Below, in pieces: positions 872-34,601 of a stretch of DNA of 36,020 bases. Below the pieces are notes generated by a model, which was given only the letters and a program-made list of their open reading frames with translations, was not told the DNA's origin and ran no database searches. Source of the DNA: a virus; IMG/VR virus record IMGVR_UViG_3300045988_117755, positions 1 to 36,020 of that record, one strand, 5' to 3'. Positions within the stretch are counted from its first letter, which is position 1. The number at the start of each line of letters is the position of its first letter. Position numbers and translations under genes: made by a program.

Positions 872-1291
872 TCAAAACGGGATATCGTCTTCGTAGATGC
901 CCTCGGTGGGCTGCTCGGGCGGTGCCTGAACACGCGCCTGCGGGGCCGCCGTTCGGGCCACATCCCCGTCGCGGGAAAGGAACTCTATCTCCTCCGCGAT
1001 GACCTCGAGCTTGCTGCGCTTCTGCCCGTCGCGCTCCCACGATGAGTATCGGAGCTTGCCGGACAGGGCCACCTTCGTACCCTTTGAGAGGTAGCGGCTC
1101 AGCGCCTCTGCTCGCGCGCCGAAAACGGTCACGTCCACGAAGTTGGGCCTGTCGACCCAGCTCCCGTCACGGTCCTTCATGCGGTCGTTGACGGCCACCC
1201 CGAAACTAAGGATCGCCGTCCCGCTGTTCGTGTGGCGCAGCTCCGGGTCACGCGTCAGGTTTCCGCTTATGACTACTACGTTGATGCTCAT
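872..1291 (-). CDS. ssb: Single-stranded DNA-binding protein (OB fold) with acidic C-terminal tail ending DDIPF.
   Basis: N-terminus VVISGNLTRDPELR... and C-terminal acidic DDIPF tail are SSB hallmarks. Confidence 0.9.
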   Translation of the reverse strand: MSINVVVISGNLTRDPELRHTNSGTAILSFGVAVNDRMKDRDGSWVDRPNFVDVTVFGARAEALSRYLSKGTKVALSGKLRYSSWERDGQKRSKLEVIAEEIEFLSRDGDVARTAAPQARVQAPPEQPTEGIYEDDIPF

Positions 1292-1458
1292 TCATACCCC
1301 TTCCCCGGCTCGAAGCCGAGCTGGTTGCATATATGCTTGTAGAGGCCGTTTATCGGACGGTCGCCCATGTGCTTGCACGGCAGGCACGTCGTGACCTCGC
1401 CGTTTGTGTAGATGTAGCGGCTCCCCTTGGATGGGCGCTTGGTGAAGCCTCGCCGCAT
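1288..1458 (-). CDS. Small (56 aa) CxxC-containing protein (MRRGFTKRPSKGSRYIYTNGEVTTCLPCKHMGDRPINGLYKHICNQLGFEPGKGYE).
   Basis: Protein-like C-terminus of track ORF 1288..1818. The upstream part of that ORF is antisense junk, so the start is taken as ATG 1458. Confidence 0.45.
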   Translation of the reverse strand: MRRGFTKRPSKGSRYIYTNGEVTTCLPCKHMGDRPINGLYKHICNQLGFEPGKGYE

Positions 1459-1493
1459 GAGGTCGCGGTCGATCTCGCGGTATGTCGGGATGA

Positions 1494-3980
1494 TCACGAG
1501 ACCTCCCCCAAGTCGAAGAGCGTCGGCATGGATATGCGCTGCTCCTCGGCCTTGAGGTAGGCCACCCCGTCCGCCCAGTAGCCGGAGTTGAGCTCGGTCC
1601 CCATGCCCTTGCGTCCAGCCCTTATCGCCCTCACGGGAACCGTCATGAGCCCTCCGAATGGGTCGTACACGAGCTCCCCGGGGTTGCTGTAGCGCTCTAT
1701 CAGGCGGTCCACTATGTCGAACTGAAGCGGGCACACGTGCTTCACGCGGCCCTTCTGCGCCTGGGAGGTGTTGAGCGTGAGCATGCGGTTCACGTCGGTC
1801 CAGACGTCCGGTGCCCACGATGCCGGTGCTATGGCCATGAACGTGGCGGGGAGGTGGCCTCTACCGTCAAGCTCCTCGCCGATGCGGACATTCGACTCGT
1901 AATCGTAGACGCTTCGCAGGCTATCCTCGGCGAAGAGCTTCCCGATCTCGTCAACAGGAACGCCCGCCCACTCCTCTGCGGTCATGTGGCGGTTGCCCGA
2001 AGAGCGCCAGAACGCGTGGGCGTCTATCTGCCAGCGCGCGCGGCTGTACTCGTCCTTAGATTTGGCGACCGGGGTGTCAGCGTATCCCCTCGTCCGGTCG
2101 GTCTGCGGCTTGTGGAATATCAGGACGTACTCCGGAGAGCCGACGCCCATCTTCGTGCCGTCCTTGCACTGCTCGGTCCATCCCAAGCGGTACGTCTGAT
2201 TGTTCTCCCGGACGACGTCGGTTACGACGGTGATCATGCCGAGGTAGTCGAATCCGTGCCTGATGCAGTGCATGATGGTCTCGACGTGGAACGGCTGAAC
2301 CGTGGGAACTCCGGCACCGGTGACGTTGCCGAAGTTGATGCGATCCTTCACATGGCAGCAGTAGATCCGACCGGGCTTGAGCACGCGCAGCAGCTCGGGC
2401 GTCAGGAAGTCCATCTGCTCGAAGAAATGCTCGTCGTCCTCGGTGTGCCCGAAATCGTTATAGCTCGGCGTGTACTCGTAGTGATTGCTGAAGGGTATCG
2501 ACGTGACGATGAGGTCGACGGAATCGCTCTCCATGCGGGCCGTCTCGTCCACGGTGTCGTTGTTGACGGCCAGCCACCCCTCTCCGGACGCCTCCATGCG
2601 CTCGACGCCTATCGAGCGCTCCATGGCTCCGGCTATCTTCGCGTCGGCGAGGCCGTACTCTTTGATGATCTCTTCCATCTTCCTAGCAAGCTCCTCGTAT
2701 TCCTCCCACTTGCGCTTGAGGGTGCGCACGACGTTCTCCTCGCCTTCTGCGTAGATGATGTCGATGCGCACAGGGTGCCTCTGCTGGAAGCGCTGCACGC
2801 GGTGGATTGCCTGTATGAAGTCGTTGAACTTGAAGCCGACGCCCATGAATATCTCGTGATGGCAATGGCGCTGGAAGTTGCATCCTGAGCCGGATAGGAT
2901 GGGCTTGGTCGCCAGGATGCGGAACTCTCCGTCTGAGAACCCGACGACGCGGCGCTCGCGCTCGTCGAGGTCCTGCGAGCCGTACACCTCTACGGCCTCC
3001 GGTATGGCCCTCTTGATAGCGTGGCGCTCGTCCTCGAGGTCGTGCCAGATGATGAAGTGCTCGTCCTTCGGCCATGCGCCGACCAGTTCCTTGGCTTTTG
3101 CGACGCGCGCATCCATGCTCTCGCGCTTCACCGCCGCAGCGTCTGAAAGGCTCGTTGCGGCGTCGCGGAACAGCCGGACCTGCCCGTCGCGGTCCACCGG
3201 GGCCTCCGAGCGCCCCGTATGGACCTTGTGCCACACGACATCCAGCGGAGGGAGGTCGTAACCATCGTCGCTGTACCCGAGGTCGCTCGGCTTCTGGACG
3301 AACACGGCCCACGTTGCGAGCCATAGCCAGAACTCCCGCTCCTTGTGCGGGTAGAGCGTAAGATTGTTGGCCTTGGTGGAATCGCGCTGGAAGAACCGGG
3401 TGAGGGCCTGCCCCGTGTCCATGATGCCTAGGTAACCGGCGTAGTGGATCAACTCCTTGTAGCGGTTCGGGGCGGGGGTCGCGGTGGCCACGAAGCGGTA
3501 CGGAACCTGCTCGAACAGAGACAGGAACGTCTGATAGGTCTTGGAGCCGTAGCTCCTGAGTACGCTCGCTTCGTCGAGGGTCGTGCACGTGAAGTGCGAC
3601 GGGGAGAGTTTGCCGTCACGGACGCTCTCGTAGTTGGTGAGGTATAGGCCGTCACCGGCGACCTCATCGTCGGTTCGGATGAACACGGGGTCGAGGCCTA
3701 GCAGCGCGGCGTCTCTCTTGAACTCCTGGCGCACGCCGAGAGGGCACACGATGAGGGCCCGCCCTCCCTCGCGCTCCATGACGAGGCGGCATATCTCCAG
3801 CTGCATAAGCGACTTGCCGAGGCCGAACGCTGCGAATATCGCCCGCCGGCCGCCGCTCACCGCCCATCTGACGATGTCCCTCTGGAACGGGAACAGGACG
3901 CTTGAGACCGAGTCGCCTGGGTCGAATCCGGAAGAAGGAGCCAGCGCCCTCTTAGACTCCAGGAAATCGACGTAGCTCAT
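1494..3980 (-). CDS. Fusion of an SNF2/DEAD-like SF2 helicase (N-terminal) with a beta-class N6-adenine/N4-cytosine DNA methyltransferase (C-terminal), 828 aa.
   Basis: Helicase motif I AAFGLGKS, motif II DEAS, motif VI-like QAIHRVQRFQQ. Methyltransferase motif IV DLIVTSIPF (an SPPY variant) precedes motif I VYDPFGGLMT. True start is ATG 3980 (MSYVDF...) overlapping the upstream stop; the first 45 aa of the track ORF are rejected. Confidence 0.8.
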   Translation of the reverse strand: MSYVDFLESKRALAPSSGFDPGDSVSSVLFPFQRDIVRWAVSGGRRAIFAAFGLGKSLMQLEICRLVMEREGGRALIVCPLGVRQEFKRDAALLGLDPVFIRTDDEVAGDGLYLTNYESVRDGKLSPSHFTCTTLDEASVLRSYGSKTYQTFLSLFEQVPYRFVATATPAPNRYKELIHYAGYLGIMDTGQALTRFFQRDSTKANNLTLYPHKEREFWLWLATWAVFVQKPSDLGYSDDGYDLPPLDVVWHKVHTGRSEAPVDRDGQVRLFRDAATSLSDAAAVKRESMDARVAKAKELVGAWPKDEHFIIWHDLEDERHAIKRAIPEAVEVYGSQDLDERERRVVGFSDGEFRILATKPILSGSGCNFQRHCHHEIFMGVGFKFNDFIQAIHRVQRFQQRHPVRIDIIYAEGEENVVRTLKRKWEEYEELARKMEEIIKEYGLADAKIAGAMERSIGVERMEASGEGWLAVNNDTVDETARMESDSVDLIVTSIPFSNHYEYTPSYNDFGHTEDDEHFFEQMDFLTPELLRVLKPGRIYCCHVKDRINFGNVTGAGVPTVQPFHVETIMHCIRHGFDYLGMITVVTDVVRENNQTYRLGWTEQCKDGTKMGVGSPEYVLIFHKPQTDRTRGYADTPVAKSKDEYSRARWQIDAHAFWRSSGNRHMTAEEWAGVPVDEIGKLFAEDSLRSVYDYESNVRIGEELDGRGHLPATFMAIAPASWAPDVWTDVNRMLTLNTSQAQKGRVKHVCPLQFDIVDRLIERYSNPGELVYDPFGGLMTVPVRAIRAGRKGMGTELNSGYWADGVAYLKAEEQRISMPTLFDLGEVS

Positions 3981-4444
3981 TGCCCGATCAGGCCGCGCAC
4001 GGCCTCTCCCAAGACCCCGGATCCCATGATTCGGGCGATGTTCGCCTTGGCCTCCTTGTCGAAGCGGCAGGAGATGCCCTTGAAGGCCCCGCCCTTCTTG
4101 TGCTCCACGCGGCACCCGTCCGGGACCTCCCCGGTCTGCTCGAAATTCTCCTTGATGCGGCCCATGTCGACGGACACGGCGGTGTAGCCGTTATCAAGCG
4201 CCCACTGGTAGAAAGCGGCGCGGTCGGTCACGGCGATTTCGTCGGAGGGCTTGGTGGACGTGATCGAGATCGTGCCGACCTTCGCGCCGTCCACCTCTGC
4301 GGTCACCTGCTTGGTGCCCACGTCCTCGTACAGCTGGCGGCACGCGTCGTTTATGTCCGCGCCGAGCAGCTTGTTCTCGTCGCTCAGCACCTTGAGGACG
4401 TGCTTCTGTAGCGCGTAGCGCGCCACGTCATCCTTGAATGCCAT
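3977..4444 (-). CDS. Hypothetical protein of the recombination module, 155 aa (possibly Gp157-like).
   Basis: Position immediately downstream of RecT; family assignment is from weak recall only. Confidence 0.4.
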   Translation of the reverse strand: MAFKDDVARYALQKHVLKVLSDENKLLGADINDACRQLYEDVGTKQVTAEVDGAKVGTISITSTKPSDEIAVTDRAAFYQWALDNGYTAVSVDMGRIKENFEQTGEVPDGCRVEHKKGGAFKGISCRFDKEAKANIARIMGSGVLGEAVRGLIGQ

Positions 4445-5228
4445 CGGGGATAGCCTCCATCTCTATGATTCCGTCCATGTACTCGACGGCTTTATCTATG
4501 TCTTCGTCTGTCAGCTGGTCCATGCTCTTGCACCCCGCGTATTCGAGGATGCGCGCCGTGGCCTCCGCCATGTCGTAGCCGAACTTCTCAGCGAACGGCT
4601 TCATGCGCTCGCGTATGGGGTTCAGGCGCGGGTCGCGCTGCGGCTTGGGTGCCTCGTAGACGGCCTCCTCGGCGGGCTCCCGCGCTTCGACATGCTCGAC
4701 AGGAACCTCGATGGGGTCCATGTCGTGCATCTCGTCCGGCGTGTAGGCCACGCCGTAGAGGGCTTCCGGGCACGCCTCCCTAGCCACCGCCGTGATGGCG
4801 CGCCACGTGAGCATGGTCATGGGCTGCTTCTGGTAATTGTCCTTGTCGATGAGCCCCATCTGCTGAGCCCACTTGCGGTCGCGGGTCACGCTGAACGGGG
4901 CCTCCGGATCATCAGCCCGGATGATGGTGGCCGTTACGCTCTGGCGCTGCTCGTCCTTGCTGATGCGCAGCTTGTGCCCAGCCTTGCGCACCTGCGCGGC
5001 TATCAGCTCCGCAGAGGCGGTGGGCTTGCCCTGTATAACGTTGATGCGGTAGATGCTCTCCATAGGCGAGAGGCCCATGGACTGGCCCAGCCCCATCGCC
5101 ACGATGATGTCGGAGGGTCGATTCTGATACTGCTTGGGAAGGAGCCCCGCCTTGCTCACGGCGTTGGCGTACTGCACCTGCTCCGAGAGGCTTATGGGCT
5201 GGGGCTCGTACTTCTGGATCTCACTCAT
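4428..5228 (-). CDS. recT: RecT-family single-strand annealing recombinase.
   Basis: ...LLPKQYQNRPSDIIVAMGLGQSMGLSPMESIYRINVIQGKP... is typical of RecT/Bet. Start ATG 5228 (MSEIQKYEP); the upstream 29 aa of the track ORF are rejected. Confidence 0.8.
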   Translation of the reverse strand: MSEIQKYEPQPISLSEQVQYANAVSKAGLLPKQYQNRPSDIIVAMGLGQSMGLSPMESIYRINVIQGKPTASAELIAAQVRKAGHKLRISKDEQRQSVTATIIRADDPEAPFSVTRDRKWAQQMGLIDKDNYQKQPMTMLTWRAITAVAREACPEALYGVAYTPDEMHDMDPIEVPVEHVEAREPAEEAVYEAPKPQRDPRLNPIRERMKPFAEKFGYDMAEATARILEYAGCKSMDQLTDEDIDKAVEYMDGIIEMEAIPDGIQG

Positions 5229-5481
5229 CGCACACCTCGCTGGCGTACGCCTCGGCGCGCTCTCGGTCCCCGGCACCGCTCTCCAGCGCGGCGTAGCGCT
5301 TGAGGACGTCCTCATTTAAGAGACTCTTACTCACATCGTCCAGGAGGTCGGCCGCCTCATCGTCCTTCCCGTTGTAAACGAGCAGCTCGAGAATGACGAA
5401 CTTCAACTCGATTTGCGCTATGAGCGAGCATGCGTCCTTGGCGATCTTCACGTAGCTATCGTTCTCCATCTTCTTCTCCAA
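5221..5481 (-). CDS. Hypothetical small acidic protein, 86 aa.
   Basis: ORF with coding-like composition inside the operon. Confidence 0.45.
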   Translation of the reverse strand: MEKKMENDSYVKIAKDACSLIAQIELKFVILELLVYNGKDDEAADLLDDVSKSLLNEDVLKRYAALESGAGDRERAEAYASEVCDE

Positions 5482-6279: not shown

Positions 6280-6939
6280 TTAAAACAGCGTCCTCTGGAC
6301 GTGGCTGCGCTCGCATATGTCGACAACGTGCTCGCACAGCTCGCGCGGGATCACTCCGCGCATGCGCTTTCCGTCCACCGCTTGCAGGCCCGACTTAGAC
6401 CCGCGCGGCGCGGGCTCATGGCACGGATCGCCGTTCCTGCACGGCGGCTTGAACTGCGGGTCGGGATGGTTCGTCCAGATGTCGGTCGGCTTCATGTACG
6501 GGAAGCCGTACTGGCAGTAGGTCACCGTGTAGCGCGGCAGCCCCCCCATCCACGGCATGCGGCGCATGGCCGCGCGCGGGTTCTCGACGAACCAGAACTC
6601 CGGGTCGAGCCGGAGGATCAGGCGCATGAGGTGCTGGTTCACCGCGTCGCAGACCTTCGCGTACTCGGTGACCGGCATCAGCCACCCGGTCTCGGGATCA
6701 GCCCTCCTGTGCCTGCCGAGCGCGGCGACGCTGTAGGTCGTGCAGTCCGGCGACGCCCAGATAACGTCGGGGACTCCCCCGCACAGGTCCAGCGCGTCGC
6801 GGACCCCGAAGCACCCTATGTCGGCGTGGCTCGACGCCTCGAACTTCTCGTCGTAGTCCACGCTGTATACCTCGTGGCCGCGCCGCTCGAACGCTTTCCC
6901 GATCGAGCGCGTTCCGCTGAACAGCTCCAGAACCTTCAC
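6280..6939 (-). CDS. Compact DNA (cytosine-5)-methyltransferase, 219 aa.
   Basis: Motif I LELFSGTRS, motif IV SPDCTTYS (PC), motif VI FVENP, motif VIII-like QYGFPYMKPTDIW. GTG start 6939 is preceded by AGGTGG. The upstream 220 aa of the track ORF are Arg-rich junk. Confidence 0.7.
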   Translation of the reverse strand: MKVLELFSGTRSIGKAFERRGHEVYSVDYDEKFEASSHADIGCFGVRDALDLCGGVPDVIWASPDCTTYSVAALGRHRRADPETGWLMPVTEYAKVCDAVNQHLMRLILRLDPEFWFVENPRAAMRRMPWMGGLPRYTVTYCQYGFPYMKPTDIWTNHPDPQFKPPCRNGDPCHEPAPRGSKSGLQAVDGKRMRGVIPRELCEHVVDICERSHVQRTLF

Positions 6940-6941
6940 GG

Positions 6942-7298
6942 CTACCACCTGGGCTCGTACTTGTCGCAGGCGGGGTCGCTCGCGCTCACCTGCTCCAGCT
7001 CGTCGCACCCGCCGTCGCACACGAGGATGCGCGACCAGTCGGCCATGGCGACCTCGCGGGATAGGTTGCACCCAGAGCACGCGCGCCCGCCGTCGGCGTC
7101 CACGATGTCGACGGCGTAGAAGTTGTCCTCGTCGTACTCCACCTTGTAGCCGAGCACCGTCAGTGCGGCCTCGACCTCGTCGACGCGGCGCTCGTAGTGC
7201 GCGGAGAGCGAGCCGGATGTGCGCCCGGCGCTGTCGATCAAACCGTTGATGTTCTTGATGACCTCGTCTTTGCTGAACATGCGGCCACCTCCCGTCAT
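6942..7298 (-). CDS. Hypothetical Cys-rich protein, 118 aa (C-terminal CSGC...CDGGCDE...C).
   Basis: ORF with coding-like composition; Cys cluster. Confidence 0.5.
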   Translation of the reverse strand: MTGGGRMFSKDEVIKNINGLIDSAGRTSGSLSAHYERRVDEVEAALTVLGYKVEYDEDNFYAVDIVDADGGRACSGCNLSREVAMADWSRILVCDGGCDELEQVSASDPACDKYEPRW

Positions 7299-7836
7299 GT
7301 CGTGTCTTGAAGTTATCGGGCAACCCGCCCCGGACCGGTGCGGTGAGAGAGGTGAGGGTCAGTCTGGAGCCACGAGGACGCATGCAGGGGTTGCACATAT
7401 GAGAGGAAGGAATGCACGTGCCCGCACCGGCCCGGGCCGGGTTGCCGCTTGAGAGACGAGCCGCAAGGCCGCATGGGCGAGGTGCCACAATGACCGCCAG
7501 CTTCGCGGTGTGCGCGCACGCACCATCACGGCCTGCACGTCTGCTTCCGCTTGTTGTTCCCATACGACCTTGCGGCCCGTCTCGAATCGGGAGGCCTCGC
7601 ACCTCCCCGTGGCGCTTACTCTCGGCGAGCGCCCTGCGCCTCCGCCCGGCCGTTGCCCACCCCGCAGGTCTGAGAATTTGCCTGCGACATGGGGCGGCGG
7701 GACGGATATCCGGTTCTAAAGGTACTCGGCGGGTCTCCCCGCCCGGGGCGCTCGCTGCCGAGTCCTCCGGCGCGAACAGCAGCTCGCGGTAACGACGAGC
7801 GCCCCGGGCGAGGGGCTGGCGAACCAGCCGCCGCGC
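7299..7836 (-). other. 540-nt GC-rich non-coding region inside the early operon, full of stable hairpins (for example GGCUGG-UUCG-CCAGCC and GGCGGG-tctc-CCCGCC). Possible structured RNA, leader or cis element.
   Basis: Only Arg/Pro-rich junk ORFs occur in all six frames; several hairpins are visible by eye. Confidence 0.5.
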
Positions 7837-11997: not shown

Positions 11998-14900
11998 TCG
12001 AAGCCTCCTCGAAAGCGCATTCGTCCATGGTCACGTCGATTGTGCGCACGTCCCTAGAGCCCTGCACGAGCGAGATGCTGAAGGAGGCCCTGCAGAGCAT
12101 CCTGTTTCCGTCGAAGTCGCGGAACCAGGCCTCCGGGTACTCGCGCGACAGCGCGCGCACGCGGTTCGCATGCTCCCTGCTAGTCACGGCGTACGACCGC
12201 GACGCGGAGCCCGTGATGGCCCCGGTCGGGTAGAAGAGCGGGAGCGAGCCGTCCCCGGTGGCGAAGTCGTAGAGCGTCCCGCCGTGGTCCGCCGACTCGC
12301 TGCCCGAGGCGTTGTAGCCCATGAGCAGCGCGACAGACGCGCCCTGCCCGAAGTTGAAAGCCTCCATGCCGCCCGAGTCCACATGCGCCGGGAGCTCCTG
12401 CGTGCTGGAGACCCCCGTCCCGGCGTAGGCCGTGACGAGGTACGTGAAGTCCACGTTGAGCGGCGGCAGCGGGTCGATGGCCTGCTGGCCCTCCGTGAGC
12501 CCCGTGGCTATGGTGTGCCTGGAGCCGTCTGGGAGCGCCCTCTGCACGGTGAATGACTCCGTTTCCGGGTAGTCCCCGCGCACATCGCATGGCACGTTCG
12601 AGGCGCGGAAGACCTGCGTCTCGGCTGCCGGGAAGGCGGGCATGGCGATGCCGGGGAGGTCCACCTCCTGCGGGGTGGCGAGCTTGTAGAGCAGCGTCTT
12701 GCCGCCGCAGACGTTGGCGATGTCCTGCGCGGTCTCGCCTGAGCCGATTGATGCGTAGGCGTAGTCCCGTGCCGCGACGATGGACGTCGAGCGATACGGA
12801 TCGTCGGTGGCGGCTCTCGGCGGCAGCGCGTCGCTCATGACCGTTCCGGGCACGTAGCTACGGACCGCATCAGGTGAGATGCCCGTCACATACCGGGCGT
12901 CCGAGCCGCCCGGTTCCCGCTTCCACGACGCCGCGTCACCGGGCAGCTCCTTCACCCCCACCCTCTGAATCAGCGTCACCGCGCCCGTGCCGTCGATGCG
13001 CAGCTCGTCGCGCGTGCCGTCGGGCAGGGAGTTGAGGGCGTGGCCGTCGAGGTCGACGGGGGTGGTGGTGATCTGAGGAGGCTCGTAGGCGGTGGCGGTG
13101 GAGCCGAGTTCGAGCTGCGGGTAGATTGTCACGTTGTCGAACTTACTGCCCGCCGAAGCCGAGATGACGAAGCGGAAGTAGTGAGGACCGCCGTCTTTCA
13201 CGGTCCCGACAGGGTTAGTAAGCCTCATAAGCAATCCGACATTACCACCCTGAGGCTCATACACACTTTCGATACGTACGTAGGCGCGCCTCGACTCCGG
13301 CCATTCATCGAACCCGCTCAGCGTGTACGTTCCGTTGGGAAGATAGAAGTCTAATGCTGTGTCGTAGAAACAAAAGACGCCTGTAGCGGTGCCGTTGAAG
13401 GTGATTGACCCGTCATCGTGCTTGACCACTGACACCCCGACATCAGTAGTGCTGTTAGATGGTGTTTTCAGCAGGTTCTTCCCCGCCGTCACGATAGACA
13501 GCTCGTCCACCCCGTTCAGCCCCGGCGGGCACCACGGCTGGGCCTCGCTGCCCTCGTTGAGCATGATGCGGTAGGTGCCGGAGATTGCGGTGCCGACGGG
13601 GGCGACGCTGTAGAATAGACAGTTGACAAAGGCGGTGTTGCTGGGCAGTGTCGCGGTAGCCGTCTTCTTGTTATTGAGCACCTCTAGGAGGAACCCAGCG
13701 ATTACAACATTGTCCGCGTCTCTCGGCTCGAGCCTGAACACCAAGCCAGACGGGAGCGTATTGTCCACCGACAGCGTGTAGGTCGAGCCGGGTCGAAGAA
13801 TATATCTCCGCGTATAACCGATCCAGACGTTGCTGGAGGTCGAGGTGCCCGATACGGTCAGCGAACCATTATCGTTACTCTTTACGGTCACGCCGCTCAC
13901 TGTGCCCGACGGGTTCACCCACAGGTTCTGCCTCGTGTTGCCGAACACCGTGAAGCCCGGTACCAGCGTGCCCGGTGTGGCCGTGACCTCGATGACCTCG
14001 CCCGTCTCGGAGCTGGGACTCCCCGCGTACACGGTGACGGCGGCGGAGAGGTCGGAGGGGTCCACGGACAGCCCCGCGTCGGGCCGCGCGGGCTCCGCGA
14101 AGCTCGTGGAGAACGAGCGGGTGGCGGTGGTCGTGAGCGACGAGCCGCCGCGCATGGTGAGTCGCAGGCTGTAATTGGTCGCGTTGCTGAGCTGGTATGT
14201 GCTCGCGTCGAAGGTGTATTGCCGCGTGCCTTTTGACGGCGTGGCGGAGTGCAGCACCTTTCCGGACTCGTCCATGAGCTGCAAGCTCTGCGACGCCACG
14301 CCGGTCGAGTCGGTGATGCTCCATTCAGCGACGAGCGGGAGGTCGCCGATCTTCGCCCCGTCGATGGCTGGCGTGGTGAAGTGCGCCTCGGGAGGTACGG
14401 CCACGGCGAACGAATAGTAGCTAGCCCACGCGCCCCAGTCGGGGTCGAGGCCGTGGGTTCGCACGCGCACCTTGACGGTGCCCGCCGACGCTGTGGCCGA
14501 CGATGGGAGCCGGTACGTGGTTACCGAGCCCTGCACCGTGGCCGTCTGCGCGGCGGCGGAGCCAATCTGGTACTCCACCTGCGCCTGCGTCTGGGCCGAG
14601 CCGTCCGGGTGGTTCGGGGTCCACGAGATGACGACGGACGAGCCCACGGCGATGACCGATGCGGGCTTGGCGGTGATGGTCGGCGCGTTCGGGGCTACGA
14701 TCGTCGTGATGGTCGCCGATTCCGTCCAGCCAGACAGCAGGCTGTCGCGCTTCGAGCGGGCGCGCAGCTTCGCGGTACCTCCGCCCACGTCGACGGTCTG
14801 CGGGAACGTCGTGTAATTCCCGACATCCTTCCACTCGCCGCCGTTGAGAGATTTTTGCACGTCCCAGCTCGTGGCATATGGGGCGTTGGAGCCATCGACG

Positions 14901-30865: not shown

Positions 30866-31272
30866 GATTCCACCCCCAGAATCTCTCGGATGCTTCGCGC
30901 CACGGCCTCAAGCCGTGCCGCTGCGTACCATGCCGGGACCGTATCGCCGCATATCTCCATATCTTGACGCGCGGTTCTGGCTATCCTGTCCTCCAATACC
31001 AGCAGGTCAACGTATCCTTTCGGCTTGAAGCTGTAACCGTCCTGATCGCTGCACTTCGGAAGGTCGCAATAGTCGCAGTACTCGCAATGCACGCACAGCT
31101 CGCCGTTCCTGTCGCTCGGCTCTACGAGGTCGGCGATCGTGTCAGCTAAACCGCCCGCGCTCCAGGAGCACTTGCGCCCGAACACGCATTCCGCAAGCTC
31201 GCCCATCGTCGCTAGGTCTGGCAGCGCCCGCAGCCTCTCGGCCACCTCGCGGCGCTCGTCGTCAGTCGCCAT
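30862..31272 (-). CDS. Hypothetical Cys-rich protein, 136 aa (CVHCEYCDYCD).
   Basis: ORF with a Cys cluster. Confidence 0.45.
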   Translation of the reverse strand: MATDDERREVAERLRALPDLATMGELAECVFGRKCSWSAGGLADTIADLVEPSDRNGELCVHCEYCDYCDLPKCSDQDGYSFKPKGYVDLLVLEDRIARTARQDMEICGDTVPAWYAAARLEAVARSIREILGVES

Positions 31273-31957
31273 CCTCGTCTCCCTTCTCCCCGGCTATCGG
31301 CACCCGGATCTCGGTGTGCCCGACCTCGATCCCGAGCCGCCTCAGGCGCTCCACGAGCGCCACGGCCCTCTCGATCTCCTCCACCGTGCCCTCGACCTCG
31401 TGCTCCCCGCACCGCAGCCACAGCTCGCCGGACATGCGCTCCACGCGGATCGACAGGGTGCTGTGGCCCCTGTCCTGCCTGGTGTTGCCCAGCCAGTCTC
31501 TGTACTGCCTGCCGACCTTCACGTCTAGGCAGGTGCTGGGGCCGTAGCCGATCCACTGCGGCTCCCCGTCCGCGATCTCCTCACCGTCCAGCTCGACCGA
31601 GCGAAGCCACGACGCGTCGGCGTCCCCTCCGGCGAGCTTCTCCATGGTCAGATCCCACCACTCGCTGGCGCGGAAGTCCTCCATGGATCGGTACTCGGCC
31701 ACGGTCTCGCCCTCGACCCGGCAGGAGAACGAGCAGCTCCCGCGCACCTCGCAGATCACGTGGGTGTTCCTGTACACCCGCACGCAGTCCGAGAACGGGA
31801 TCACGTGCCAGCTCATGCTGTCCACCATCCCGACCTCCGGGTCGGCACCATTGCGAACGTTCTCGTACCTTACCTGCCCGTCAAACCACTCCTTCGAGGT
31901 ATCGCGCATCAGCCACAGGTCCTCGAACGTCCTGGGCTCCATGGTCTCCTCGCTCAT
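31262..31957 (-). CDS. Hypothetical protein, 231 aa.
   Basis: ORF with coding-like composition. Confidence 0.45.
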   Translation of the reverse strand: MSEETMEPRTFEDLWLMRDTSKEWFDGQVRYENVRNGADPEVGMVDSMSWHVIPFSDCVRVYRNTHVICEVRGSCSFSCRVEGETVAEYRSMEDFRASEWWDLTMEKLAGGDADASWLRSVELDGEEIADGEPQWIGYGPSTCLDVKVGRQYRDWLGNTRQDRGHSTLSIRVERMSGELWLRCGEHEVEGTVEEIERAVALVERLRRLGIEVGHTEIRVPIAGEKGDEDGD

Positions 31958-32715: not shown

Positions 32716-33320
32716 CACTGCCCCCTCTCCGCCAGCGCGCCCCACTGCTCGGCCATGGCCCGCGCGACGCCGGGGTACGTCTTGCTTCTCAGCATCCCGC
32801 GCTGCGGCGACGGCGGGAGATAGTGAAGCCTCTCCCGCTGGTTCTTCGGAAGCGCGAGCATCTGCTCCCTCACATTGTCGGTTTCTTCGAGCGGCGGGAG
32901 ACCTTTTAGCCACAGGCACGTCGCCTTCTGCTCTGGGTGGCCGAACATCCACGGCTGGATGATCTGGTCGGGCTTGCGGTAGAGCGTGGACATGATGCCC
33001 ACGGGGTTCTCTATCGCAATCTTGGGCACGTGGTCGAGCGCCGTGAAGGCGAGGAAGAACCCGATGCCCATCTGCTGGCGTCCGTCGCGTCGCTTCTGCT
33101 CGAACCACGCCGCTCCGCTCGACGCGAGATTTGTGCACGGAGGGAAGGCGAGGACCATGTCCCACGCCATCTTGCAGACCTCCAGCGCGTCCGCCTGGAT
33201 GTGCCACTCGGGGTGTCCCCCAGAGCACGGCAGGAGGTCGCAGCTGTACGCTTCATGGCCGAGCCTGCGCAGCTCGGACGTGACGGCCTGCGACTCCTCG
33301 CAGGCGCAGAGCACCCTCAT
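32715..33320 (-). CDS. C5-cytosine-MTase-fold protein with a degenerate motif I, 201 aa.
   Basis: MRVLCACEESQ stands where FxGxG is expected. Motif IV AFPPCTNLASSG (PC) and motif VI IAIENP are retained. Confidence 0.5.
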   Translation of the reverse strand: MRVLCACEESQAVTSELRRLGHEAYSCDLLPCSGGHPEWHIQADALEVCKMAWDMVLAFPPCTNLASSGAAWFEQKRRDGRQQMGIGFFLAFTALDHVPKIAIENPVGIMSTLYRKPDQIIQPWMFGHPEQKATCLWLKGLPPLEETDNVREQMLALPKNQRERLHYLPPSPQRGMLRSKTYPGVARAMAEQWGALAERGQ

Positions 33321-34258
33321 GACGCATCCCTCCCCGCCAGCGCCCTCGCGCGGCGAACAAGGTCGCGGATATCCGCGCTCGCGTCGGAATCGAAGGCGTC
33401 GAAGAGGCTCGCCGTTCTATCCGCGTCCTCCTCCAGCCGCTCCCAGCTGTCGGGACGCTCGTGGGTGAGCAGGCCGGGACTCCACATCCCGCGCACTGGG
33501 AGGGCGTCCGCGTCGGTCATCCTGTGCTCGCACCACACGCGGCCATCCTCGAAGCCGGTGACGATAAGCTCCTCGCCCGTGTTCTTGTCGAACACCGTTT
33601 CCTTGACGCGAATCTCCGCCCCGTCAGCGTCGAGCACCTTGGGCGCGGGGCGCTTGACTCGCTCGCCGTTTTCGAGCGTGACGGCGCACGCGCCCTTGCC
33701 GAGCTTCCAGAAGACAGCGCCGCCGAGCGCATCCCGGCAGTCCTCGATGGCGATGGTGCGGAGCGTCGAGGCGTTGCCCTTTGCGTTGATGAACTCGTCC
33801 CCGAACATCACCAGCTCGCCCGACTCGTATCGCGGCCACTCGCAGCCCTCGGTCATGAGGCGGAGGCGCATGGCGGCCATCGCCTCGCTCCACCCCTTGT
33901 CGATGTCGATGCCGAGCGCGCCGCACAGCTCGACGCGGCGAATGTCGGCATCCTGGAACATGCGGCGCAGCGCCTCGATGCCGCCCTGCCCGCGCACCCA
34001 CTCGGCCGCCTCGCGGTCCTCTTCGCGCACGGTGCGGCGCTCGAGCGCGGCGTTCTCCAGCCTCTTGATGTGCTCCCTGCGCTTGCGCAGCGCGGCCTCG
34101 CACTCGCGGATTTGGCGCAGCCACGCGGCGCGCTTGCGCTCGTACGCCTCTCGCGGCACTGAGTCCCGAAGCCTCGCCCGCAGGCGCTCGCACTCCTGCC
34201 GCGCTAGGTCGCGCTCTGCCCTGAACTTGGCAGCGCTCAGCTGCTCGTCGTATCCCAT
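33317..34258 (-). CDS. Hypothetical protein, 313 aa, with an N-terminal coiled coil.
   Basis: Start at ATG 34258 (GGAGGT upstream); the upstream Arg/Gly-rich extension of the track ORF is rejected. Confidence 0.4.
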   Translation of the reverse strand: MGYDEQLSAAKFRAERDLARQECERLRARLRDSVPREAYERKRAAWLRQIRECEAALRKRREHIKRLENAALERRTVREEDREAAEWVRGQGGIEALRRMFQDADIRRVELCGALGIDIDKGWSEAMAAMRLRLMTEGCEWPRYESGELVMFGDEFINAKGNASTLRTIAIEDCRDALGGAVFWKLGKGACAVTLENGERVKRPAPKVLDADGAEIRVKETVFDKNTGEELIVTGFEDGRVWCEHRMTDADALPVRGMWSPGLLTHERPDSWERLEEDADRTASLFDAFDSDASADIRDLVRRARALAGRDAS

Positions 34259-34416
34259 GCGTACCTCCATCTGTACCCGTAGGCCGTGCGCTTTGGCTTC
34301 CTGCACGCCCTGCTGATGTTCGTCTGGTCCCCGATTACGTCCCTCGCGGCATCCGACTCGCTCTCGTAGCGCTTGCCGTCGGAGCGCACCACGGGCCTCT
34401 TCCTGCGGTCTGTCAT
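34237..34416 (-). CDS. Small basic DNA-binding protein (59 aa) resembling the C-terminal NUMOD-like module of phage homing endonucleases (…QTNISRACRKPKRTAYGYRWRYAWD).
   Basis: The NIS..C.GKRKTAGGY.W.Y pattern is recalled from HNH/GIY-YIG homing-endonuclease C-termini. GGAGG RBS; ATGA overlap. Confidence 0.4.
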   Translation of the reverse strand: MTDRRKRPVVRSDGKRYESESDAARDVIGDQTNISRACRKPKRTAYGYRWRYAWDTTSS

Positions 34417-34601
34417 GCGTAAAGCCTCCAGAGATCGCACGTATCATCCCTGCTCACCCATTCATCCGTGAGCTCGCAGTACCCTAGCTCGCCGCACATG
34501 CCGTTCCTGAATCGCAGGCACTCGCAGCAACGGCCGCTCTCGCCCTCGCCCCATTGGCTCCACTCGGGGAATTCGATAAGGTCAAGATCGTGCTCGGTCA
34601 T
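34413..34601 (-). CDS. Cys-rich small protein, 62 aa.
   Basis: ORF; CCEC…C…C…C. Confidence 0.4.
   Translation of the reverse strand: MTEHDLDLIEFPEWSQWGEGESGRCCECLRFRNGMCGELGYCELTDEWVSRDDTCDLWRLYA

Follow-up and report, generated by a model that had tools for sequence, protein, structure and literature searches.

In positions 1 to 36,020 of the IMG/VR virus record IMGVR_UViG_3300045988_117755, a stretch of 36,020 nucleotides that was analysed as a whole and is called the window here, a minus-strand gene at 1494..3980 encodes a Snf2-type DNA motor and a DNA methyltransferase (MTase) fused in one polypeptide of 828 amino acids. It is a real phage gene and a member of a large and already known family, not a relative of the P1 protein DarB or of the DISARM defence system, and it is largely ordinary. 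Its most likely role, to which we lean with modest confidence, is motor-assisted self-methylation of the phage DNA against host restriction.

The N-terminal half of the protein comprises a Swi2/Snf2-type ATPase core with two RecA-like lobes at residues 28–410 (2751..3899; this and all following features of the gene lie on the minus strand). It contains helicase motif I, or Walker A (GLGKS, residues 53–57, 3810..3824), motif II, or Walker B (DEAS, residues 136–139, 3564..3575), motif III (TATP, residues 166–169, 3474..3485), and motif VI with the arginine fingers (QAIHRVQRF, residues 390–398, 2787..2813). A preliminary description of the gene had reported a fused superfamily 2 (SF2) helicase and MTase of 828 amino acids; all of the motifs that it named are present where it had placed them, on the minus strand, which it had left unstated.

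The same description had called this half SNF2-type. In profile searches, the fusion stays below the Pfam gathering thresholds for both SNF2-rel_dom (17.5 vs. 24.9 bits) and Helicase_C (15.2 vs. 23.5 bits), so that this label is not established from the sequence alone, and only the predicted fold establishes it; some homologs with 72–76% identity to the fusion do have a precomputed PF00176 match. The full-length AlphaFold2 model, calculated from a 59-sequence alignment, has a mean predicted local distance difference test (pLDDT) score of 80.7 and a predicted template modelling (pTM) score of 0.66, with pLDDT values mostly of 83–95 in the lobes of the ATPase. When the model was compared with the PDB by Foldseek, ranks 1–32 were all taken by Swi2/Snf2-family ATPases (probability 1.0, E 3.5e-16 to 7e-14), including Chd1, BAF/PBAF BRG1, Sth1, CHD4, ISWI, Mot1, RapA, SMARCAD1, Rad26, and CSB; the first match from outside the family, XPB, followed at rank 33. 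On the strength of this model, the N-terminal half has a predicted Swi2/Snf2-type fold that is nearer to Snf2 structures than to other SF2 groups, which bears out the earlier assignment. The model also places an insert of approximately 130 amino acids between motif III and lobe 2.

The C-terminal half, residues 460–828 (1497..2603), is a β-class exocyclic-amino DNA MTase domain according to Pfam, the AlphaFold2 model, and Foldseek. The Pfam family N6_N4_Mtase (PF01555) matches residues 488–801 with 55.5 bits (E=1e-14; cut-off 26.7 bits). A domain-only model of residues 455–828 reached a pTM of 0.80, and its top 46 Foldseek matches in the PDB are all β-class DNA MTases, in the order TTHA0409 (3e-15), then M.BceJIV, M.PvuII, CcrM, rotifer N4CMT, M.RsrI, M.MboIIA, and M1.HpyAVI, while the Mod subunits of Type III systems (EcoP15I and Mbo45V Mod, E about 6e-6 to 3e-5) are more distant. 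The best matches of the domain in both sequence and structure are thus stand-alone β-class enzymes. The preliminary description had proposed an N6-adenine (N6A)/N4-cytosine (N4C) enzyme of the β-class and had named a missing methyltransferase fold as the outcome that would speak against it; the fold is present in the domain model, and motif IV (SIPF, from residue 494) lies N-terminal to motif I (FGGLMT, from residue 775), which is the β-class order.

Within this domain, the catalytic motif IV (SIPF, residues 494–497, 2490..2501) is a variant of the SPPF consensus and aligns to SPPY of TTHA0409. The sequence HVCPLQ (residues 748–753, 1722..1739) is the counterpart of the β-class HPxxxP motif on the side of S-adenosylmethionine (AdoMet) and aligns to DHPAPFP of TTHA0409, whereas motif I, the AdoMet-binding motif, occupies residues 775–780 (1641..1658). 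Between the MTase core and motif X, residues 626–745 (1746..2105) form a variable region in the position of a target-recognition domain, delimited by pLDDT, entropy, and consensus length. The region is longer in this protein than in most of the family, the consensus being much shorter there, and pLDDT is low at residues 661–746.

Conservation was assessed in two alignments, one of 56 full-length representatives of 50%-identity clusters (about 30–58% identity to the query; 57 sequences with the query) and a second one of 59 family sequences. In the second alignment, G53, G55, K56, D136, E137, T168, P169, Q390, R394, R397, S494, F497, H748, F775, and G777 are shared by every sequence, the query included, and C750, P751, Q753, and P774 are conserved in at least 90% of the members. 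The motifs GxGK[TS], DE[SA]S, TATP, Q..R..R, S-x-P-F, HxCPLQ, and PFxG show no or almost no variation among 56–59 members. Judged by mean column entropy in 119 close homologs (0.51–0.66 for the ATPase lobes, 0.57–0.79 for the MTase core), the two halves appear to be about equally constrained. Variability among these homologs peaks at residues 241–300 and 661–690, the latter having the highest entropy and lying in the target-recognition position.

The deviation of motif IV from the canonical sequence deserves separate consideration. Among the 57 aligned sequences, S494, P496, and F497 are each kept in 55, and position 495 is occupied by proline in 37, isoleucine in 12, and valine in 3; the 270 fetched proteins comprise 156 with SIPF, 55 with SPPF, and 13 with SVPF. 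On these counts, SIPF is a variant of the family consensus SPPF that is stably kept in its clade, not a decayed site. In the ranking of structural matches, N4C enzymes are mixed with N6A enzymes, so that the target base is not readable from the fold. A serine at the first position of motif IV is the usual N4-cytosine signature of amino-MTases, though it is not decisive, and "DNA methylase N-4" is the RefSeq name for the mycobacteriophage homologs. Read against the consensus SPPF, the SIPF motif favours N4-cytosine over N6-adenine as the putative target and does not decide between them.

The two halves are connected by an inter-domain linker, residues 411–459 (2604..2750), with a long predicted helix at residues 412–442, which is defined by the secondary structure of the model and by alignment with a split relative. 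In Mycobacterium phage Ramsey, the halves are two adjacent genes in the same order and in different frames, separated by a gap of 2 nucleotides (2950–5243 of the Ramsey locus). The product of the first, gp65 ("DNA helicase"), aligns to query residues 1–440 with 35% identity, and that of the second, gp66 ("site-specific DNA-methyltransferase"), to residues 463–823 with 28% identity; apart from being two polypeptides, the pair differs from the fusion in its canonical SPPF motif IV. The break point in Ramsey coincides with the predicted linker helix of the fusion. Similar two-gene annotations are found in CaptainTrips, Maravista, Gordonia phage GMA1, Synechococcus phage S-H1, and a Flavobacterium phage. 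Since the same pair occurs in fused and split forms, the two activities would form a functional unit.

A further variation affects the MTase half of relatives. In gp63 of Mycobacterium phage Veteran (NC_051716, 1489–5001 of the locus), 331 amino acids are inserted between V749 and C750 of the HxCPLQ motif; the insert starts with cysteine, ends with asparagine followed by cysteine at position +1, and has Hint and LAGLIDADG matches. This insert is an intein at a position close to the active site. Clifton and Squirty have a match of the same 3.5-kb length as Veteran, and RefSeq calls the intein-bearing genes of all three phages "anaerobic ribonucleoside reductase large subunit", a misnomer that evidently arose from the intein. 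The fusion in the window has no intein. As inteins of mycobacteriophages are reported to sit in active centres (Kelley et al. 2016, PMC5050341), an intein in the active-site region of the MTase of relatives argues that the MTase is under selection. Taken together, the split versions, the intein in the MTase site, and a C5-cytosine methylase as the commonest neighbour (see below) point to a working methylation module.

Proteins of this kind are widespread. The PHROG family phrog_16 ("DNA helicase") aligns to residues 28–827 with E=2e-138, and a tblastn search against 50,697 phage records returned matches in 323 of them, 304 covering at least 80% of the protein. Best among the phage matches are gp64-type proteins of Cheoctovirus mycobacteriophages (Girr gp64, GUmbie gp64, and RockyHorror gp67), with 64.8% identity over 100% of the length; the Cheoctovirus homologs are annotated as "DNA helicase/methylase", "DNA helicase", or "DNA methylase N-4". 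Other carriers include Arthrobacter phages (62–65% identity, including Auxilium gp73), the Pseudomonas phages phi297 and D14I (56%), and phages of Flavobacterium columnare (31–48%), and the family as a whole spans phages of Actinobacteria, Pseudomonas, Flavobacterium, and cyanobacteria. An exhaustive protein search found at least 5876 clusters at 50% identity with E<=1e-3, 1030 of them with E<=1e-30; a word-indexed search found at least 8000 clusters at 90% identity with E<=1e-10. Matches of this number, together with the N6_N4_Mtase and phrog_16 scores, greatly exceed what chance would give. The nearest named proteins among the matches listed are from Gordonibacter (prophage), with 77% identity, and at least 600 stretches in IMG/VR match the fusion. 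When 25 kb of the window were compared with deposited phages by megablast, only the fusion gene matched (about 77% nucleotide identity), the phage being otherwise unrepresented there.

The architecture has also entered the literature. Kelley et al. list the N6_N4_Mtase intein host "DNMT-1" in F1 and F3 mycobacteriophages, and their figure legend names DEXDc, HELICc, and N6_N4_Mtase domains (PMC5050341). With annotations in hundreds of phage genomes and a published name, DNMT-1, the architecture is already known and the protein is not novel as a kind; in this respect, the preliminary description had overrated its novelty.

The limits of the gene are well defined. The 828-residue frame with its ATG start and stop codon follows from the listing of open reading frames (ORFs) in the window, and the complete gene is supported by phrog_16, by Girr gp64, and by the identical protein being called with the same 828 residues on four independent metagenome contigs. 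The ORF itself extends over 1494..4115, and an in-frame GTG at 4115 would yield 873 amino acids. This start was rejected, considering the calls on the four contigs, the conservation of Y3, F6, and K10 counted from the ATG, and the overlap of the ATG with the stop codon of the upstream 155-amino-acid gene (caATGAgc). At the other end, the TGA of the fusion overlaps the GTG start of a downstream gene of 69 amino acids, with a GGAGG Shine–Dalgarno sequence 6 nucleotides upstream of that GTG. These overlaps on both sides make the fusion gene one cistron of a tightly coupled operon. Long ORFs inside the gene, either antisense to it or in a shifted frame (1737..2888, plus strand, 383 amino acids; 2683..3588, minus strand, 301 amino acids), were treated as high-GC artefacts because the 828-residue frame holds all of the homology. 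Ahead of the ATPase core, residues 1–30 (3891–3980, minus strand) carry a short conserved signature with a predicted helix at residues 3–9, in which Y3 is invariant and F6, K10, and G18 are at least 90% conserved; it may serve as a docking peptide or as part of the regulation of the ATPase.

The window represents a siphovirus-type genome, with genes for an HNH protein, the large terminase, the portal, the major head protein, the tape measure, tail proteins, and a CHAP endolysin on the minus strand. After the endolysin follows an early operon composed of a helix-turn-helix regulator, a C5-methylase-like gene, a PD-(D/E)XK/RusA-like resolvase, RecT, the 155-amino-acid ORF, the fusion, a HicA-like ORF, and SSB; gene matches thus confirm the early region with RecT and SSB to which the gene had been assigned. 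Among the genes of this approximately 36-kb phage, as annotated in the window and on two contigs of the phage, none has a recorded integrase, replicative helicase, primase, or polymerase domain. The methylase-like gene of the operon, of about 209 amino acids (6280–6909, minus strand, inside ORF 6280..7602), lies 2.3 kb upstream of the fusion and matches phrog_757 ("DNA methyltransferase", E=9e-33); it has the C5-MTase-like motifs LFSGTRS, SPDCTTYS, and FVENP and no Pfam match at E<=0.01. The phage, hence, carries two candidate methylases.

Neither of the genes flanking the fusion is well characterized by profile. The ORF of 69 amino acids (1288–1497, minus strand), which shares a GTGA overlap with the fusion, has a sub-threshold match to HicA_toxin (24.6 bits; cut-off 27 bits) and no evident HicB-like partner beside it, the next gene being SSB. 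The ORF of 155 amino acids (3977–4444, minus strand) has a weak match to phrog_11955 (unknown function) and none in Pfam. Elsewhere in the window, a weak match to DUF6291 (replication-organiser-like) lies downstream of SSB, and several ORFs of 200–376 amino acids (e.g., 33317–34447 and 31262–31957) have no PHROG or Pfam match.

To place the fusion in a broader genomic setting, co-directional ORFs within 5 kb of it were clustered for 80 IMG/VR loci, which form 68 dereplicated groups. A C5-cytosine methylase (PF00145, E=9e-35) is the commonest neighbour family, occurring in 18 of the 80 loci (17 of the 68 groups) and directly adjacent in nine, vs. only 5–10 loci for each single recombination or replication family. 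DnaB-like helicases are found in seven loci, ResIII/DEAD helicases in eight, genes related to phosphoadenosine phosphosulfate (PAPS) reductase in six as well as in Girr, and β-clamp genes in five, being adjacent in three. There is no gene conserved at position −1 or +1 of the fusion and no obligate nuclease in these loci, and neither of the two flanking ORFs of the window has a homolog beside the fusion there. For these reasons, the fusion is regarded as an autonomous module that moves between phage genomes.

Among individual relatives, a single-strand annealing protein and an HNH gene lie upstream of the homolog in Ramsey and Veteran, and a PD-(D/E)XK nuclease and RecT accompany it in phi297. 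In the Gordonibacter-type prophage, RusA, DUF1351, and Lin1244_N are encoded upstream of the fusion, and a DNA polymerase III β-clamp gene (12484–13551) overlaps and directly follows it. An HNH endonuclease gene is found directly upstream of the homolog in Girr, Ramsey, and Veteran.

We suggest that the protein acts as an autonomous two-domain enzyme that would be made early in infection. Snf2-family ATPases move along duplex DNA without separating its strands (PMC5512222); by analogy, the motor half would track along the duplex without unwinding, while the MTase half would modify the phage's own DNA during replication, and host restriction enzymes would then fail to cut it. The fused motor may move the methylase along the DNA or clear bound proteins from it, which would allow fast and complete modification of the genome. 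As the protein has no nuclease domain and the gene no conserved partner, it would be an orphan "modification-only" motor enzyme, not a restriction system. The anti-restriction role put forward in the preliminary description is, thus, plausible and the one that we prefer, whereas its analogies with DarB and DISARM are not supported as homology.

Several points weigh against self-methylation as the role of the fusion. Ordinary phage methylases work without a motor, which leaves the need for one unexplained; motif IV is without its first proline, and the putative target-recognition region is poorly predicted, with pLDDT values of 34–55. Furthermore, the gene is consistently found among recombination and replication genes (here RecT, the PD-(D/E)XK/RusA-like protein, and SSB), which fits a replication role equally well. 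Literature searches on helicase–methylase fusions returned only intein surveys (PMC5050341 and PMC9957025, the latter apparently about a different, non-helicase methylase family), an analysis of polyvalent proteins (PMC5512222), and general reviews; no experimental work, biochemical or genetic, on any member of the family and no biochemical data for the S-I-P-F variant were found in them.

The weightiest of the competing explanations regards the protein primarily as a replication or recombination motor, i.e., a Snf2-type fork remodeler or an annealing or branch-migration ATPase, which would act with RecT, SSB, and the resolvase in recombination-dependent replication, the methylase being secondary and marking new DNA. 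The translational coupling of the fusion inside an operon with the PD-(D/E)XK/RusA-like protein, RecT, the 155-amino-acid ORF, the HicA-like ORF, and SSB, along with a like context in Ramsey, Veteran, phi297, and the Gordonibacter-type prophage, agrees with such a function, and so do the lack of any other helicase, primase, or polymerase domain on record for this phage's genes and a helicase-only relative in Corynebacterium phage StAB (22% identity over residues 47–441). Co-location discriminates only weakly, however, as the early operons of temperate siphoviruses hold most of their DNA-metabolism genes, and each recombination or replication family is outnumbered in the surveyed loci by the C5 methylase. 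Where a DnaB-like or ResIII/DEAD helicase is encoded nearby, the fusion is not the sole helicase of the phage; moreover, Snf2-family ATPases do not unwind the duplex (PMC5512222), and the catalytic residues of the MTase are as conserved as those of the ATPase. On balance, a primary replication motor appears rather unlikely. The converse idea holds that methylase domains of the SIPF clade have lost catalysis and only bind DNA or AdoMet, as a module that targets or regulates the Snf2 motor; it draws on the departure of S-I-P-F from the canonical (S/D/N)-P-P-(F/Y/W) and on literature searches in which activity data for any member were not found. In amino-MTases, the residue at the second position of motif IV contributes mainly via its backbone carbonyl, which would apply here as well and speaks against loss of activity. 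The conservation of S494, P496, and F497, of the invariant H748, F775, and G777, and of P774 (at least 90%) is at odds with a dead enzyme, too, as are the stable retention of SIPF in 156 of the 270 fetched proteins instead of decay, the persistence of an intein in the MTase of phages with SIPF, such as Veteran, and an entropy of the MTase core that equals that of the ATPase. We, therefore, consider a dead MTase improbable.

A different proposal would make the protein the modification-and-motor part of a phage-borne restriction-like system, of Type III or Type ISP-like organization, with a separately encoded nuclease that cuts unmodified host or competitor DNA. A β-class methylase with an SF2 ATPase is indeed the Type III composition, EcoP15I and Mbo45V Mod are among the structural matches, and an HNH gene stands directly upstream in Girr, Ramsey, and Veteran; however, mycobacteriophages commonly have free-standing HNH genes as homing elements, the ATPase resembles Snf2 instead of ResIII enzymes, and the protein itself has no nuclease domain. 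With no nuclease conserved at −1 or +1 in the 80 loci and with neighbours in the window (the 155-amino-acid and the HicA-like ORF) that do not recur beside the fusion there, such a system is highly improbable. We attach next to no probability to true homology or functional equivalence with P1 DarB (packaged into the virion, injected, and acting in cis against Type I restriction) or to a stray DISARM module of DrmD and DrmMI. What speaks for these readings is the superficial likeness of a single polypeptide that combines an MTase with a Snf2-like ATPase and a PADLOC match to DrmD (E=3e-7), against which stand a best BLASTP E-value of 0.13 for DarB, a DrmD score of 20.8 bits vs. a cut-off of 610 bits, the late, virion-associated nature of DarB vs. 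the early operon here, and head, tail, and lysis genes in the window, which mark it as a phage genome and not as a defence island.

Self-methylation of the phage DNA, thus, is retained as the preferred role. A stronger version of it, in which the Snf2 motor is mechanistically required for methylation and the family constitutes a distinct class of ATP-driven, translocating "scanning" methyltransferases, seems doubtful to us. If true, such enzymes could strip nucleoid proteins or restriction and defence complexes from the phage DNA, much as Mot1 and RapA do with their own targets, and processive modification with relaxed specificity could provide broad protection beyond that of ordinary orphan methylases. 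On this reading, the S-[I/V]-P-F clade might also differ from canonical SPPF enzymes in its chemistry or in its substrate (e.g., single-stranded DNA at forks). As a catalogue entry, the protein adds little, since hundreds of phage genomes already have an annotated member of its family. A widespread element of phage counter-defence would be explained by learning if methylation depends on the motor, what base and sequence the enzyme modifies, and what host defences it evades; moreover, the family might yield a processive DNA-methylating tool enzyme, and in phages of gut Eggerthellaceae, the fusion would flag methylation as a barrier-crossing strategy.

In comparison with known systems, P1 DarB resembles the fusion as a phage protein that couples an MTase with a Snf2-like ATPase and is proposed to counter restriction, and its motif IV, N-V-P-F (DarB residues ~171–232), likewise has a hydrophobic residue for proline at position 2. 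Such coupling of Snf2 ATPase and MTase in phages, plasmids, and conjugative elements, for which a counter-restriction role has been proposed, was described by Iyer et al. (2017) as a dyad of an EcoKI/TaqI-like adenine MTase and a C-terminal Snf2 domain with LPD36; DarB is a component of the virion head that protects DNA in cis (PMC5512222). In DarB, the MTase precedes the helicase in a protein of 2255 amino acids that has an N-terminal LPD36 domain (N6_Mtase/Eco57I gamma-type, PF02384/PF07669, at 145–290; SNF2 at 849–911; Helicase_C at 1455–1517), and darB adjoins the P1 portal gene (prt) and the late promoter LPpro. In contrast, the ATPase of the fusion precedes its PF01555 domain, the protein is about one third as large, and the gene belongs to an early operon, a position that argues against packaging into the virion. 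Homology to DarB was rejected, the best BLASTP match being limited to the neighbourhood of motif IV and the architecture being different. Because of the reversed domain order, the other MTase family, the smaller size, and the early gene position, the likeness is convergent at most.

DISARM, with DrmD and DrmMI, shares with the fusion the association of a Snf2-like ATPase with a DNA methylase; it is, however, a multi-gene defence locus, not a phage early operon, and the fusion scores far below the family cut-offs. Membership in DISARM or BREX was rejected, PADLOC and NCBIfam giving only sub-threshold matches to lobe 2: the score of 20.8 bits is that of NCBIfam DISARM_DrmD (NF038317), and the PADLOC DrmD match (27 bits) covers residues 332–463 only. 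The DISARM echo appears to be a generic match to the second RecA lobe. No defence locus with DrmA, DrmB (DUF1998), or DrmC surrounds the fusion, its neighbours being SSB, RecT, the resolvase-like protein, endolysin, tape measure, portal, and terminase.

Type III systems (e.g., EcoP15I Mod with Res) likewise pair a β-class, PF01555-type methylase with an SF2 ATPase as the motor for travel over long distances on DNA. In contrast, the fusion is a single chain with a Snf2-like instead of a ResIII ATPase and without a nuclease; profile searches of Pfam, PHROG, PADLOC, and NCBIfam found neither a nuclease nor a ResIII match in it.

The closest counterparts of the whole protein are the Girr-type proteins of Cheoctovirus, which share its full-length architecture (839 vs. 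828 amino acids), the SIPF motif IV, and the position in the early region. They differ in host lineage and in their flanks, which are an HNH and a PAPS-reductase-like gene in Girr vs. RecT, SSB, and the HicA-like ORF here. For the MTase domain, the nearer matches are the stand-alone enzymes TTHA0409, M.BceJIV, M.PvuII, and CcrM, with the Type III Mod subunits far behind. TTHA0409 (from T. thermophilus), M.PvuII (N4C), M.BceJIV, CcrM, and M.RsrI (N6A) have the same fold and the same order of motifs IV, X, and I, whereas these β-class MTases are without a motor domain, have a canonical motif IV (SPPY, SPPF, or DPPY), and differ in the region between the core and motif X.

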